DNA of 47,956 nt from contig JAWBQF010000021.1 in NCBI GenBank assembly GCA_038845975.1, positions 1 through 47,956 on the forward strand. The letters run 5' to 3'. Positions within the stretch are counted from its first letter, which is position 1. Each line of letters begins with the position of its first letter. Of this stretch, positions 2,801 to 43,843 are shown one piece after another. The notes below the pieces were generated by a model. It was not told the origin of the DNA, did not search any database, and saw only the letters and a program-made list of their open reading frames with translations. The position numbers were made by a program, and so were the translations under genes. Source of the DNA: Candidatus Methanomethylicia archaeon (GTDB lineage: Archaea > Thermoproteota > Methanomethylicia > CALHIW01).

Positions 2801-2904
2801 GGGCCCGTAGCGCAGTATGGAAGCGCGTCGGCCTGAGGGTTTTGACCTGGCTAACGGATGAGGAAGAAAGCCGGTGGTCCGGGGTTCAAATCCCCGCGGG
2901 CCCG
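2801..2904 (+). tRNA. tRNA-Arg(GCG) with two introns: 34/35 (2836-2854) and 37/38 (2858-2868)
   Basis: Acceptor GGGCCCG/CGGGCCC-G, T-arm CGGGG-TTCAAAT-CCCCG; BHB GGCC/GGCT with bulges TG|A and AA|C; removing both introns gives TCGGC-CT-GCG-GA-GCCGG. Confidence 0.85.
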
Positions 2905-4102: not shown

Positions 4103-5728
4103 ATGAAATACGATATTGACAATATTTTTGAGCTAAGACACAAAGACCTACTTGGTAGAATAGGAAGACTTAAGACAAGACATGGTATAATTGAAACTCC
4201 TACTTTGCTTCCTGTTATCAATCCATTAAATCAAATAATAACTACTAATGATTTATATTTTAAGTTTAAAGTTAAAGGTATTATAACTAATGCTTACTTA
4301 TTAAGAAAATATTTCAAAGAACAAGCTATAATTCAGGGAATTCATAATTTATTAAATTTCAAAGGAGTCATCATGACTGATTCAGGTGCATATCAAATAT
4401 TAAGATACGGTAGTATAGATGCAGATCCTGACGATATTGTTTTATTTCAAAAAAATATAGGAAGCGATATTGGAGTTATTCTTGATATACCCACTGGATG
4501 GAAAACTGATAGAAAATACGCTGAATACACTGTTTTAGAAACATTTAAAAGAGCTAATAATGCAACTCAACTAATAGATGGAAGTGATATGCTTTGGGTT
4601 GGGCCACTACAAGGCGGTAAGTATATAGATTTAATTGAATATTCGGCAGTAAGGATGAGAGAGTTACCATTCCATATTTATGCTCTAGGAAGTCCAACAG
4701 TAGTTATGGAGCAGTATCGTTATGATCTTCTTATCGATATGATATTTGCAGCTAGAAAAAACATACCCCCAAATAGACCACTTCACCTATTTGGTGCTGG
4801 GCATCCATTTATGTTTGCTATAGCAATAGCGCTAGGATGTGATATATTTGATTCTGCATCTTATGCATTATATGCGAGAGATGATAGATATATTACAGAA
4901 TACGGGACAATAAAGTTTGACAGATTAAATTACCTGCCTTGCACATGTCCAGCATGTAATAAAGCATCTATTGATGAATTACGGCAAATGGATAAAGAAA
5001 GCAGAGAGAAAATTTTAGCAGAACATAATCTATACATATGTATTAGTGAAATCAATAGAATTAAACAAGCAATCATTGATGGCAGATTATGGGAATTTAT
5101 AGAAATACGTTGTAGAAGCCACCCATCACTCATGAAAGCATTAATAAAATTCAAAAAGTATTTAACATATCTAGAAAGAAACACTCCGGTTAGTAAAAAG
5201 AGAGGAATATTCATACTCGATATGATAAGTCTAAATAGACCAGAAATTTTCAGGTATAAAAGATGGTTAATTAAACGCTACAGTCCTCCTGCGGAAAAGG
5301 ACGTATTAATTTTAGTACCTAGTATCAATATGGAAAAGCCATATCATAAATCTCCAATAATAAAGAAAATCATAAGATATATAGATAAAGTCCTAAACAT
5401 AGATCGTATAAGAGTTCACATATGTGTATACGATTTACCATTTGGTGTGATTCCATTGGAAATCGATGATATTTATCCAGTTTCGCAACATGAAACAGCT
5501 ATAGAAGCTACTTATAACGGTAACCTTAGAAAAAATATGGTCTACCAGATAGTTAAATTTATAAATAAATTTAAAAAAAATTATAAGTACTACCTAATAG
5601 TAACTAGTAATATATTAAATGAAAAACATATAGATTTCATAGAAAAAACATGTAAAATTAAAGTAAAAGTTGTAAAAAGTTATAATGATTTACTTAGATT
5701 GAATTTGCCTCATCTTCTTGGTAAATGA
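4103..5728 (+). CDS. tgtA: Archaeosine (tRNA-G15) tRNA-guanine transglycosylase
   Basis: IETPTLLPVINP, IMTDSGAYQ, HLFGAGHP, GCDIFDSASY, Zn site CTCPAC...H; no C-terminal PUA domain evident. Confidence 0.93.
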   Translation: MKYDIDNIFELRHKDLLGRIGRLKTRHGIIETPTLLPVINPLNQIITTNDLYFKFKVKGIITNAYLLRKYFKEQAIIQGIHNLLNFKGVIMTDSGAYQILRYGSIDADPDDIVLFQKNIGSDIGVILDIPTGWKTDRKYAEYTVLETFKRANNATQLIDGSDMLWVGPLQGGKYIDLIEYSAVRMRELPFHIYALGSPTVVMEQYRYDLLIDMIFAARKNIPPNRPLHLFGAGHPFMFAIAIALGCDIFDSASYALYARDDRYITEYGTIKFDRLNYLPCTCPACNKASIDELRQMDKESREKILAEHNLYICISEINRIKQAIIDGRLWEFIEIRCRSHPSLMKALIKFKKYLTYLERNTPVSKKRGIFILDMISLNRPEIFRYKRWLIKRYSPPAEKDVLILVPSINMEKPYHKSPIIKKIIRYIDKVLNIDRIRVHICVYDLPFGVIPLEIDDIYPVSQHETAIEATYNGNLRKNMVYQIVKFINKFKKNYKYYLIVTSNILNEKHIDFIEKTCKIKVKVVKSYNDLLRLNLPHLLGK

Positions 5729-17289: not shown

Positions 17290-17383
17290 GGGCCGGTAGC
17301 TCAGTTTGGAATGAGCGCCCGCTTTGCAAGCGGGAGTTCAGTATTGTGACCCGAAGCCGCGGGTTCAAATCCCGCCCGGTCCA
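17290..17383 (+). tRNA. tRNA-Ala(TGC) with variable-loop intron 45/46 (17337-17355)
   Basis: GGGCCGG/CCGGTCC-A (G3:U70), CCCGC-TT-TGC-AA-GCGGG; BHB central helix CGGG/CCCG, bulges AG|T and AA|G, inner helix TCA/TGA. Confidence 0.93.
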
Positions 17384-19408: not shown

Positions 19409-19535
19409 TGGGGCCGGAGGGATTTGAACCCTCGCCCAACGGGTTTCCCTACATTATATGGTTTAATTTATTAATATGTCTATCTGGAGCCCGTCATCAT
19501 ACCTAGCTAGACCACGGCTTAGTGCTACTAATCCC
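19409..19535 (-). tRNA. tRNA-Trp(CCA) with introns at 3/4 (19519-19532) and 37/38 (19445-19483)
   Basis: 3' acceptor CGGCCCC-A requires GGGGCCG = GGG + 14-nt intron + GCCG; ACGGG-CT-CCA-G|..|A-CCCGT; T-arm GAGGG-TTCAAAT-CCCTC. Confidence 0.88.
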
Positions 19536-19792
19536 ACCCCATCTGGCCCTTAGGATATATTATATCATAAACTTATAAGTTTGTCGATTGTTGAAATAAA
19601 TCCTGCTAATTCATCTAACTAGATCCATTATTAAAGAAATGACAATTTACCTAATGCTAATACAGAACTTATAAGACTGAGTTAAGGATTTATAATAGTT
19701 TAAAAGCTAGTTGTTAATATTCAAATAGTAGACCCACGCGATTAGATTATTTTTATCAAAGAAACGCCTTCACTATATTAAATTTTTAAATC

Positions 19793-21864: not shown

Positions 21865-21948
21865 GGGCCCGTCGTCTAGTGGTAGGACTTTAATCCTGAA
21901 ACCTGCCTTACACGCAGGAGGTCAGGGGTTCAAATCCCCTCGGGCCCA
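21865..21948 (+). tRNA. tRNA-Val(TAC) with intron at 25/26 (21889-21900)
   Basis: GGGCCCG/CGGGCCC-A, CCTGC-CT-TAC-AC-GCAGG; BHB central helix TAGG/CCTG, bulges AC|T and AA|A, outer GG/CC. Confidence 0.92.
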
Positions 21949-27192: not shown

Positions 27193-27290
27193 TGCGGGGG
27201 GTGGGATTTGAACCCACGAAGGCCTATGCCAAGGGATATCCCAAAATGTTCTTGAGTCCCTCCCCTTTAACCTATCTCGGGAACCCCCGC
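27193..27290 (-). tRNA. tRNA-Leu(CAA) with canonical 37/38 intron (27238-27250)
   Basis: GCGGGGG acceptor, AGGGA-CT-CAA-G|..|A-TCCCT, long variable arm, BHB helix CTCA/TGGG. Confidence 0.93.
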
Positions 27291-27366: not shown

Positions 27367-27477
27367 GCCGGGGTCGCCTAGGCTGGTCTATGGCGCTGGA
27401 CTATCACAGACCAGACTCATAATCCTAGTCATAGGGTTGGATTCCAGTTATCGTGGGTTCAAATCCCACCCCCGGCA
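27367..27477 (+). tRNA. Elongator tRNA-Met(CAT) with introns at 32/33 (27402-27416) and 38/39 (27423-27442; 37/38 possible)
   Basis: GCCGGGG/CCCCGGC-A; BHB CTGG/CCAG with bulges AC|T on both sides; spliced arm CTGGA-CT-CAT-AA-TCCAG. Confidence 0.85.
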
Positions 27478-27522
27478 TCTATGAAACAACAAGAATATAA
27501 GAGTCTGTTTCCTATAGTTTCA

Positions 27523-27644
27523 GCCCCGGTGGCTTAGTCTGGTTAGAGCGACAGTATTAAAACCGTGAGCGCTTGGTATTTGGCACAAAAAGCGGTAGGT
27601 CCCGAGATAAATTAAGTACGGGAATTCAAATCTCGGCCGGGGCT
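27523..27644 (+). tRNA. tRNA-Thr(GGT) with three introns: 28/29 (27553-27569), 37/38 (27579-27590), 53/54 (27607-27624)
   Basis: GCCCCGG/CCGGGGC-T; after removal ACCGC-TT-GGT-AA-GCGGT, AGGTC, CCGAG-TTCAAAT-CTCGG; each intron has a BHB-like fold. Confidence 0.88.
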
Positions 27645-27990: not shown

Positions 27991-28064
27991 AGCCTCCGGC
28001 GGGATTTGAACCCGCGACATGCCGCTTACAAGGCGGCCGCTCTACCGTGCTGAGCTACGGAGGC
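27991..28064 (-). tRNA. tRNA-Thr(TGT), intronless
   Basis: GCCTCCG/CGGAGGC-T, GCCGC-CT-TGT-AA-GCGGC, GCGGG-TTCAAAT-CCCGC. Confidence 0.97.
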
Positions 28065-32530: not shown

Positions 32531-33856
32531 GTGCGCATAGCTGAAGTAGCATTAAAAATTATGTCTGAGCATAAAATATGTGATCCATGTTTAGGAAGAT
32601 TATTCAGTATGTTAGGAAGAAATGTGGACAACTATAATAAGGGAAAGGCTATAAAAACATCCATATACCTCTCAGCTTGTAAGAATTTATTAAAAGGTAA
32701 TGGCGAAAACGGGACAAAAATACTTAAGATAATAGCTAAAAATGGAAACTTCAAGCCTGCATATAGCATACTTAGAGAGCTTAATATCTCTATTAATGGA
32801 GAAAAATTTGTATGTGAACTATGTGGTGGGCTTATAGATAAAATAGATGAATACATTCATACCGCTGTGGAGAAGCTTAAAAATATAGAATATAGCACAT
32901 TTATTGTTGGTGTAACGATACCGCCAGAACTTGTAAGCAGGGAAGATGCTATAAGATCAAAATTTAAGTTGTCATATGTCGAAGCCCTAAAGAGAGAGCT
33001 TAACAGAAGAATAGGATTAAAAATGACTCTATTGACTGGTAAACATGTTGAATTTAAAAATCCTGACGTATTAGTTCATATAGATTTTATGAGAGGAATT
33101 GTAAATGTAAAGGCTAGATCAATATTTATATTTGGGCGCTATCTTAAGCTTAAAAGAGAGATACCTCAAAATATATGGATATGTAATAACTGTAATGGTT
33201 TAGGATGTACTCAATGTAATTGGACTGGAAGAAAGTATCAAATAAGTATAGAAGAACTTATTGGAGACCCTATATTAAAGATATTTAATGCGAAAAAGTG
33301 GAAATTCCATGGAGCAGGAAGAGAAGATGTAGATGCTAGAGTCTTAGGACGAGGAAGACCATTTGTAATAGAAATTATTGAGCCCAAAAAAAGAAATATT
33401 AAACTAGAAGATATAGCCAAAGTAGTGAATGATTCAAGTAGGGAATTAGTAAAAATACAAGATTTAACATATGTAAGTAAATCATTAATTAAAGACTTAA
33501 AAATTAAAGCAAAAATTGCTAAAAAAACATATAATGTAAAGATTAAAGTTGAAGGAGGAGTAAGTGAAGAGGAATTAAAGAATCTTGTTGAAACTTTCAG
33601 AAACATTATTGTTGAGCAAAGAACACCAATACGTGTTCTTAGAAGAAGACCTGACAAAATAAGGAGAAAGAGAATATATAGTGTTAACGTAAAAATTATT
33701 AGCAATGATGTTTTCGAAGCTACAATAACATGTCAAGGTGGATTATACATTAAGGAAGTTGTTTCAGGAGATAATGGAAGAACTAAACCGAGCTTTACTG
33801 AAGTTCTTAATAAGAAAGCTATGTGTCTAGAGTTAGATGTTATTGATGTTGAATAA
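32531..33856 (+). CDS. pus10: tRNA pseudouridine(54/55) synthase Pus10
   Basis: CD.CLGR.F, GRYLKL.R.IPQ..W, FHGAGREDVDARVLG.GRPF, GGLYIKE..SGD.GRT.PS. Confidence 0.95.
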   Translation: MRIAEVALKIMSEHKICDPCLGRLFSMLGRNVDNYNKGKAIKTSIYLSACKNLLKGNGENGTKILKIIAKNGNFKPAYSILRELNISINGEKFVCELCGGLIDKIDEYIHTAVEKLKNIEYSTFIVGVTIPPELVSREDAIRSKFKLSYVEALKRELNRRIGLKMTLLTGKHVEFKNPDVLVHIDFMRGIVNVKARSIFIFGRYLKLKREIPQNIWICNNCNGLGCTQCNWTGRKYQISIEELIGDPILKIFNAKKWKFHGAGREDVDARVLGRGRPFVIEIIEPKKRNIKLEDIAKVVNDSSRELVKIQDLTYVSKSLIKDLKIKAKIAKKTYNVKIKVEGGVSEEELKNLVETFRNIIVEQRTPIRVLRRRPDKIRRKRIYSVNVKIISNDVFEATITCQGGLYIKEVVSGDNGRTKPSFTEVLNKKAMCLELDVIDVE

Positions 33857-42379: not shown

Positions 42380-43843
42380 GTGGGCGTTATTATGTTTATC
42401 CGTAGAGGAAGACGTTTAGAAATACTATCTAAAGATCAGATTTATCGTATTCACTTAGCATCTATTGAAATACTGGAGAATACTGGGGTTAAAATTAATC
42501 ATGAAGAAGCCTTAAGAATGCTTGATAGACTTGGTGTTTATGTTAACTACAAAAGTAAAAACGTGAAAATATCCGAATCCATAGTAAGAGAAGCTCTAAA
42601 AAAGATTCCTTCAGAATTTACATACTATGGAAGAAAAACAAAATTGGATGTAAAAGACGACTACGTATACTATCTAAGTGGCGGCTCCCCCTTAAAAGTC
42701 ATGGATCTAAATGGAAATATTAGAAATGCAACGTTAAAGGACTTATCAGAATTTGTAAGGCTTTACGATGCTTTAAATTATGTAGACTTTATTTCTGGAA
42801 CGTTAACTCCTACAGATATTCCTAATGAATTACGTCACCTATATAGTTTCCTTATAAAGCTGGAAAACACAGTAAAGCCAATTACAGTAGGATCGTTACT
42901 TAATGAGGATGTATGTATGGATGTAATTAATCTTGCATCTATAGCTGCTGGAGGAATTGAGGAACTTCGTAAGAAACCAATAATTATGGCATGGGAGAAT
43001 CCTTTAAGCCCGCTAAGCCATATTAAAAGCCAAGTTGCTCAAATACTTATTTTTGCTAAATATCATCTACCTATTCTAATAGCTTCAGCACCACAATCTG
43101 GATCTACCTCACCAATAACTCTAGCTGGAACCTTAGCTCAGCAGAACGCTGAGATTCTAAGTGGCTTCATTATTGCCTATGCGTCATTAGAAGGTAGAAG
43201 TATGCCCCCATTAATATATGGAACAGCTCCTGCCGTATTAGACTTAAGATATGGAACAATGGTTTATGGCTGTCCTGAAAGCATGCTTATTAATGTTGCA
43301 TCAATTCAGATAGCGAGATATTATGGTATTCCATGTAGATGTACTGCAGGATCTACAGAATCGAAATCAATTGATGTCCAAGCTGGTTATGAAACTGCTA
43401 TGACTCTACTTAGTGTAGCCTTAGCTGGCGGCAACTTAGTAATGAATGCAACTGGTGGGGCGATGGGTCCAGGAGTTGATATTATGAGTTTTGAAAAGGC
43501 AGTTATAGATAATGAAATAGCTGGATATATTGATAGATTTCTGAAAGGCATAGATGTAGATGATGAAACTCTAGCCCTAGATGTTATAAGAGAGGTAGGT
43601 TCTGAAGGACACTATATGAGTAGAAAACATACATTAAAACATTACAGAGAACATTACATACCTATATTAAGTAATAGAAAGCCTACAGAAAGATGGCTTC
43701 TTGATGGAGATGATGTAAGAAGAAAAGCTAGGGAAACAGCTTTAAAAATACTTAAAGAGCACCAGCCGGAAGAGCTAGATAAGAATATAAAAATGGAAAT
43801 AGAGAAGTACATAAATGAGGTTAAAAGTAGAAGGTTAAAGTAA
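42380..43843 (+). CDS. MttB-superfamily corrinoid methyltransferase, non-pyrrolysine
   Basis: IHLAS.EILE.TGV, SPL, G.TSPITLAGTLAQQNAE.LSG, YGCPE, Q.ARYYG.P, SK..D.QAGYE, SFEK..IDNE; no in-frame TAG. Confidence 0.9.
   Translation: MGVIMFIRRGRRLEILSKDQIYRIHLASIEILENTGVKINHEEALRMLDRLGVYVNYKSKNVKISESIVREALKKIPSEFTYYGRKTKLDVKDDYVYYLSGGSPLKVMDLNGNIRNATLKDLSEFVRLYDALNYVDFISGTLTPTDIPNELRHLYSFLIKLENTVKPITVGSLLNEDVCMDVINLASIAAGGIEELRKKPIIMAWENPLSPLSHIKSQVAQILIFAKYHLPILIASAPQSGSTSPITLAGTLAQQNAEILSGFIIAYASLEGRSMPPLIYGTAPAVLDLRYGTMVYGCPESMLINVASIQIARYYGIPCRCTAGSTESKSIDVQAGYETAMTLLSVALAGGNLVMNATGGAMGPGVDIMSFEKAVIDNEIAGYIDRFLKGIDVDDETLALDVIREVGSEGHYMSRKHTLKHYREHYIPILSNRKPTERWLLDGDDVRRKARETALKILKEHQPEELDKNIKMEIEKYINEVKSRRLK

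Follow-up and report, generated by a model that had tools for sequence, protein, structure and literature searches.

Transfer RNA genes with three introns, introns at position 53/54, and a T-arm intron that blocks the formation of pseudouridine 55 are all already in print. According to the excerpted text of PMC4090602, 53/54 is among the known non-canonical tRNA intron sites, the Pyrobaculum islandicum tRNA-Pro(UGG) gene has its three introns at 25/26, 37/38, and 56/57 (cited there from Sugahara et al. 2007), and the triple-intron genes of Thermoproteales are tied to two-subunit endonucleases and relaxed splice motifs. In three Asgard genomes 92 to 95% of the tRNA genes contain introns (PMC11291895, in excerpt), and up to five inserts were described in one Asgard tRNA gene (excerpt of preprint 10.64898/2026.10.13.758758), so that the view of a sequence-only reading of the DNA studied here, that three introns are about the archaeal maximum, is outdated. 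For the red alga Cyanidioschyzon merolae, the excerpted PMC9602550 describes precursors with a T-arm intron that are not modified by the pseudouridine-55 synthase Pus4 of this alga (cmPus4).

The gene described here encodes tRNA-Thr(GGT) in an uncultured hot-spring archaeon of Candidatus Methanomethylicia and lies in a stretch of 47,956 nucleotides that was analyzed as a whole (the window). Like P. islandicum tRNA-Pro(UGG), it combines the canonical intron with one near the junction of the D-arm and the anticodon arm and one in the T-arm, and it shares with the triple-intron genes of Thermoproteales the short introns, the BHB/hBH/HBh' motifs, an intron-rich tRNA set, and probably a two-subunit EndA. 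It differs from tRNA-Pro(UGG) in being another isoacceptor, in its sites 28/29 and 53/54, and in belonging to class Methanomethylicia rather than Thermoproteales; 28/29 is missing from the site examples in the excerpted PMC4090602, which form a non-exhaustive "such as" list. The C. merolae case of PMC9602550, as far as its excerpt goes, is similar in having three introns in one gene with one of them in the T-arm, but concerns a eukaryote and Pus4 (TruB family) instead of Pus10, and the ordering was experimental there whereas it is deduced here. A literature search (including Verstraetearchaeota and Culexarchaeia; site strings such as 53/54 were unsearchable) found no published work on tRNA introns in Methanomethylicia; the one paper on tRNA introns among the matches listed deals with Asgard archaea.

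Anatomy and surroundings of the tRNA-Thr(GGT) gene

SRP54 relatives placed the source genome (G000) in class Methanomethylicia, with 92 to 93% identity to a metagenome-assembled genome (MAG) so named, 60% to another MAG, and 56% to Culexarchaeum. The features of the gene and its nearest neighbors are as follows, the introns having been delimited by manual parsing.

27523..27644, forward strand: tRNA-Thr(GGT) gene, 122 nt, four exons and three introns (Rfam match; ARAGORN after in silico splicing)
27523..27552, forward strand: exon 1; acceptor 5' strand, D-arm, position 26, positions 27-28
27553..27569, forward strand: intron 1, 17 nt, at 28/29 (anticodon stem, 5' strand)
27570..27578, forward strand: exon 2; positions 29-37, anticodon GGT at 27575-27577
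27579..27590, forward strand: intron 2, 12 nt, at the canonical position 37/38
27591..27606, forward strand: exon 3; positions 38-53 (anticodon stem 3' strand, variable loop, T-stem 5' strand)
27607..27624, forward strand: intron 3, 18 nt, at 53/54 (T-stem/T-loop junction)
27625..27644, forward strand: exon 4; T-loop, T-stem 3' strand, acceptor 3' strand, discriminator T; CCA not encoded
27494..27502, forward strand: TATA-like A+T-rich box, 21-29 nt upstream of the gene, read from the sequence
27367..27477, forward strand: tRNA-Met(CAT), the upstream neighbor, 111 nt (Rfam 48.6 bits; alignment to a compact reference)
27991..28064, reverse strand: tRNA-Thr(TGT), the isoacceptor, no intron (ARAGORN; Rfam 71.3 bits)

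Removal of the three introns in silico left a 75-nt cloverleaf that ARAGORN called tRNA-Thr(ggt), with 21 of 21 stem pairs standard. The sequence-only reading had arrived at the same three intron lengths and sites, and its count of 47 intronic nucleotides among the 122 agrees with the coordinates. While the boundaries of introns 1 and 3 could not be slid, intron 2 could be moved by one base in the window; three other variants of the gene (see below) pin it to 37/38, because the intron ends in G or T in these relatives. Contigs from three independent studies span the gene with zero differences, indicating that the structure is no assembly artefact, and an intron-less joint for any of the three introns was not found in the contigs of four runs (X13 reaches only position 27582). 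Thus, the observation of a three-intron Thr(GGT) gene is confirmed.

In its unspliced form the gene was missed by ARAGORN, which found two tRNA genes in the window, and was absent from the seven tRNA matches that Rfam returned there at gathering scores. When the filters were relaxed, positions 1-71 of the Rfam tRNA model (RF00005) aligned to exactly 27523-27644 (+), with long insertions opened at the anticodon arm and the T-loop. The alignment scored 27.0 bits (E = 0.0036) where the cut-off asks for 29, a shortfall due to the three inserts. Since this is the only tRNA found for ACU/ACC and is invisible both to ARAGORN and at the Rfam cut-off, routine annotation would report a missing essential tRNA. 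ACT and ACC together make up 146 of the 7317 codons in 21 ORFs of the window.

The intron-free Thr(TGT) gene that had been placed about 350 bp away does exist, starting 347 bases downstream of Thr(GGT), and the upstream tRNA-Met(CAT) contains two insertions, both in its anticodon arm. Around the TATA-like box, a 14-nt stretch is identical upstream of Thr(GGT) in all the variants described below, and from its sequence the box is a candidate promoter element of the gene. Elsewhere in the window, a 541-aa protein (4103-5728, +) with a TGT domain and DUF5591, which probably belongs to the archaeosine pathway, shares the stretch with Pus10 and seven tRNA genes. A separate uninterrupted ORF of the MttB family (42380-43843, +; 487 aa; Pfam E 1e-101) contains an Rfam PYLIS_3 match at 43352-43454 (43.2 bits against a cut-off of 38) and no in-frame stop codon to recode despite that match.

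Conservation, splice-site motifs, and processing

The only other genome of the family examined (G001; same genus, 62% complete) has a Thr(GGT) gene of 93% identity with three inserts at the same places and of the same lengths as in the window; six of its eight substitutions fall in introns and two in the D-loop. Metagenome contigs were scanned with a pattern anchored on exon stretches only, which returned four loci (L179 to L182). L182 is identical to the window over the gene, the L179 gene measures 116 nt with introns of 16, 12, and 13 nt, and L180, which equals L181, measures 115 nt with introns of 15, 12, and 13 nt. All three intron positions are kept in every variant, and all share the upstream tRNA-Met neighbor.

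In an alignment of the four distinct sequences (window, G001, L179, and L180), 21 of the 47 intron columns were variable versus 3 of the 75 exon columns (Fisher, 5e-8). The three variable exon columns all belong to exon 1 (position 9 and two D-loop bases), and exons 2, 3, and 4 are invariant in all four variants. Whereas intron 2 is always 12 nt long, intron 1 ranges from 15 to 17 nt and intron 3 from 13 to 18 nt; the 3' part of intron 1 is conserved and the last 8 nt of intron 3 are invariant, the invariant intron bases being the 3' parts that build the central helices and the 3' bulges of the motifs described next.

Each intron was checked for a central helix of 4 bp flanked on opposite strands by unpaired stretches of 3 nt, each of them cut after its second base. 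Intron 3 forms all four pairs, between C48-G51 (27601-27604, CCCG) and intron bases 13-16 (27619-27622, CGGG), as the sequence-only reading had noticed, and each of its cut sites lies two bases inside the adjoining 3-nt stretch; this geometry was reached by 4 of 20000 intron shuffles. It has two inner pairs (h' of 2 bp) and h = 0, and in the 13-nt variants the inner helix cannot form. Three of four central pairs were found for intron 1 (G26-C, C25-G, and G24-U, with A23/G unpaired; 142 of 20000 shuffles matched the geometry), again with two inner pairs (h' of 2 bp) and h = 0. Intron 2 also has three of four (U32-A, U33-A, and G34-C) and is closed by three anticodon-stem pairs (h of 3 bp) with h' = 0; 6320 of 20000 shuffles (32%) reached its geometry, which by this measure alone is no better than chance. 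The central-helix mismatch of introns 1 and 2 lies at one end, and the cut-site geometry holds at all six sites. None of the three introns takes the strict hBHBh' form, in which outer helices h and h' close both bulges; with outer helices otherwise missing, the motifs are thus relaxed ones (HBh', hBH, or bulge-helix-loop) rather than strict BHB.

The three central helices are paired in all four variants, the G-U pair of intron 1 being G-C in the three others. Compensatory changes were not seen in the splice helices, as 0 of 24 pairs change on both sides among these four related sequences, a number so small that the shuffle control is uninformative. These data indicated that the pattern is one of conservation and not of covariation.

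The source genome contains two PF01974 (EndA) genes (99.6 and 60.5 bits) and one PF01139 (RtcB) gene (581.9 bits). The EndA paralogue ORFs are 183 and 180 aa long; the first matched 3p1z_B, 3ajv_B, and 2zyz_B (E 5e-51 to 8e-40), which presumably belong to crenarchaeal heterotetrameric (two-subunit) EndA structures, and the second is divergent, with a weak match to 3p1z_A. Beside the gene anatomy, its conservation, the orthologue pattern, and the EndA and RtcB genes, all of which are observed, we infer the steps of transcription, cleavage, and ligation and the order of modification as follows. In the precursor, the 3' part of each intron would pair with the exon just upstream to give a central helix of 3 to 4 bp and with it a relaxed bulge-helix-bulge or bulge-helix-loop, in which either cut would lie two bases inside the unpaired stretch next to the helix. 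The two-paralogue EndA would cut the six sites, and RtcB would join the four exons into the 75-nt tRNA. The central helices use bases 23-26, 32-35, and 48-51 without overlap and thus can coexist, so that no splicing order is forced.

Compared with eight intron-less orthologues from other families, the spliced Thr(GGT) has an equal length and 57 to 62 of 75 identical positions. Four to six stem pairs are changed on both sides, and all are still paired; they include 29-41 and 30-40, which lie just past intron 1 and have intron 2 between the partners, as well as 49-65 and 52-62, whose partners are separated by intron 3. A second Thr(GGT) gene was not found in the source assembly, which is 93% complete, and an intron-free copy could thus lie on the missing DNA. 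A look through 21 listed sequencing runs found none made from RNA. The sequence leaves hardly any doubt that the gene works and that the usual archaeal machinery splices it. Taking the evidence as a whole, the best explanation, which we hold to be highly probable, is a functional tRNA-Thr(GGU) gene with three protein-spliced introns that is processed by EndA and RtcB.

One could also imagine a real gene with other processing, in which at least one insert leaves by another route (nested or sequential folding, or a non-EndA enzyme) or the order is obligatory as motifs need an earlier splice. This would fit the incomplete central helices and weak outer helices of introns 1 and 2, the chance-level shuffling result for intron 2, the much greater stability of the unconstrained precursor fold (-38.4 versus -25.9 kcal/mol with all three motifs enforced), and the growth of the closing helix of intron 2 from three to five pairs upon removal of intron 1. 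We nevertheless regard it as improbable, since the central helices occupy separate bases and each is conserved in all four variants, and to our knowledge no other system for removing tRNA introns exists in archaea. Moreover, two-subunit EndA enzymes are described as acting on relaxed motifs at non-canonical sites (PMC4090602, in excerpt). A decaying tRNA pseudogene whose inserts are never removed, with ACY codons decoded by another, unassembled or heavily disguised gene, would be in line with the sub-threshold Rfam score, the failure of ARAGORN, and the incomplete genome, but is very improbable given that all 21 stem pairs are intact once spliced and compensatory changes span the introns, that the exons stay near-invariant across four variants while the introns drift and the splice-site helices are conserved, that the assembly yielded no other Thr(GGT), and that the same architecture recurs in the congener and in two diverged metagenome variants.

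Intron gain and the intron-rich tRNA set of the genome

The Thr(GGT) gene was then set against its orthologues. Thr(GGT) was readable in 25 of 62 genomes of the class, that is, in G000, G001, and 23 others. It is intron-free in 16 of these 23 (families f2, f3, f4, f7, f8, and one f6 genus), and in the other 7 (f9 and one f6 genome) there is a single intron of 10 to 14 nt, at 37/38 only; the f9 introns share with intron 2 a "CAA" core and the 12-nt length. Three introns were found only in G000 and G001 among the 25 class genomes, plus the metagenome loci L179 to L182. As introns 1 and 3 are absent from the 23 other genomes, they are gains of this lineage or family, and the comparison of orthologues thus supports the intron gain that the sequence-only reading had proposed. 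Its qualification of that gain as gene-specific was too narrow, however, because about 30 of the 37 tRNA regions in the genome are interrupted and a second three-intron gene exists (see below): the difference between Thr(GGT) and Thr(TGT) does exist, as one instance of a burst that runs through the whole genome. Introns 1 and 3 would have been gained in this family during such a genome-wide proliferation; the site of intron 2 is occupied by an intron in relatives as well.

The T-stem pairs 49-65 and 52-62 differ from those of all orthologues, and this makes C48-G51 complementary to intron 3. Exon and intron are thus apparently fitted to each other; from the sequences, the Thr(GGT) exon appears to have changed together with the intron, the T-stem having been remodeled to match it. 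A donor was searched for by blastn-short against the source genome with each intron, both by itself and with 8-nt flanks, and this yielded only A+T-rich matches of 11 to 17 nt, none in a tRNA locus. The best of them (15 nt, C13:43590-43604) was rejected as non-tRNA sequence in which ARAGORN finds nothing. The genome provides no evidence for copying of the introns from another of its tRNA genes.

To count insertions of at least 9 nt, 37 tRNA regions of the source genome were compared by alignment with 35 compact tRNAs from G005, a genome of a sister family; the distribution was as follows.

No insertion: 8 regions
One insertion: 17 regions
Two insertions: 10 regions
Three insertions: 2 regions

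One of the eight "zero" regions visibly has a 12-nt insert that was split by the aligner; the interrupted regions thus number about 30 of 37, and the insertions at least 43. By comparison, only 4 of 36 tRNA genes are interrupted in the sister-family genome, none of them twice (36 of its 45 matches covered). Only 29 tRNA genes of the 93%-complete source genome pass the Rfam cut-off. A first search by gene halves missed even Thr(GGT), which indicates that the tRNA census is incomplete. Similarity searches of the assembly with the G005 Thr(CGT) and with the Thr(TGT) described above brought up no tRNA-Thr(CGT) gene, which may be missing, disguised, or absent.

The second gene with three inserts is a CAT-anticodon tRNA (C50:8071-8200, -); its insert at 9/10 measures 14 nt, and those in the D-loop and at 37/38 measure about 12 nt each. 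Burst sites in the genome include ~3/4, 9/10, 10/11, the D-loop, 28/29, 34/35, 45/46, 53/54, and the T-loop. Thr(GGT) is the most interrupted parsed case in the proliferation of its family but is not exceptional in the genome.

Several further arrangements were noted among these tRNA genes, and within the window the interrupted ones include 2801-2904, 17290-17383, 19413-19560 (-), 21865-21948, 27193-27290 (-), and 27367-27477. Two tRNA-Pro genes (window 19413-19560, -, and C10:266-400, -) have an apparent acceptor-stem insert at ~3/4, which reads GGG, 14 to 20 nt, and GCCG, together with a long anticodon-loop intron each, and Rfam matches them only from model position 4. By manual parsing, inserts apparently lie inside the anticodon (34/35) of Arg(GCG), Arg(CCG), and Leu(GAG) (window 2801-2904; C10:25224-25319, -; C50:7843-7953, -); the two Arg genes share a second, near-identical 11-nt insert at 37/38, and Leu(GAG) has a further 13-nt insert in the T-loop. 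Inserts were recognized by eye at 10/11 in both tRNA-Gln genes and at 28/29 in Pro(GGG), and Ala(TGC) and Ala(GGC) (window 17290-17383; C34:313-406) carry an identical 19-nt insert in the variable region at ~45/46. Genes with an insert at 7-11 have a copy or near copy of their own first seven bases just upstream in the leader, which may help to build the splice motif or may make the gene start ambiguous:

C30:15040-15139, gene with leader copy
C1:83685-83808, gene with leader copy
C24:18455-18586, gene with leader copy
C30:33226-33335, reverse strand, gene with leader copy
C50:8071-8200, reverse strand, gene with leader copy (the CAT-anticodon tRNA above)

The endonuclease was considered as a cause of the burst and was ruled out. 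Of the 62 class genomes, 49 gave two EndA matches, 12 a single match, and 1 no match, and the intron-poor sister-family genome has the same two-paralogue endonuclease; the enzyme is thus permissive everywhere and does not explain the burst. We lean toward an independent, family-restricted burst of tRNA introns inside Methanomethylicia, of which Thr(GGT) would be one sign. As far as the excerpted reports go, this resembles the Asgard burst in being lineage-restricted, in occupying many non-canonical positions with several introns per gene, in including introns missed by standard tools, and in a widespread enzyme not explaining the burden. It differs in that the Asgard archaea are another phylum and carry about 2.2 insertions per gene and up to five in one, versus roughly 1.2 to 1.3 per gene here.

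T-loop modification and significance

The window also encodes the enzyme for T-loop pseudouridylation, as the sequence-only reading had claimed, and the Pfam domains bear this out.

32531..33856, forward strand: Pus10, pseudouridine 54/55 synthase, 441 aa (Pfam Pus10_C, E 4e-70; Pus10_THUMP_arc, E 4e-23)

Any meaning in its proximity to Thr(GGT) was rejected, the two genes being 4.9 kb apart with five unrelated genes between them; the proximity looks incidental. According to the excerpted PMC9957541, archaeal Pus10 makes pseudouridine 54 and 55, and the M. jannaschii enzyme acts on a T-arm microhelix. With intron 3 present, the T-loop of the Thr(GGT) precursor would be 25 nt instead of 7, and the splice-site helix of this intron uses three of the five bases of the T-stem 5' strand. 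Because the seven-base T-loop does not exist while intron 3 remains, it is a reasonable inference that T-loop modification, including the formation of pseudouridine 54/55 by Pus10, most likely follows the removal of this intron.

The four natural variants, with the same intron positions, differing lengths, invariant central helices, and a remodeled T-stem, constitute a series on the minimal structure for a two-subunit EndA, and they are equally usable to test whether modification of the T-loop by Pus10 waits for splicing. What merits closer study is the proliferation of tRNA introns in this one family. A family rich in introns whose relatives have few of them and yet the same enzyme is a test case for how tRNA introns arrive. 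If the burst reading is true, this family would join Thermoproteales and certain Asgard archaea as a third lineage rich in tRNA introns, and one with close intron-poor relatives for dating the gains.
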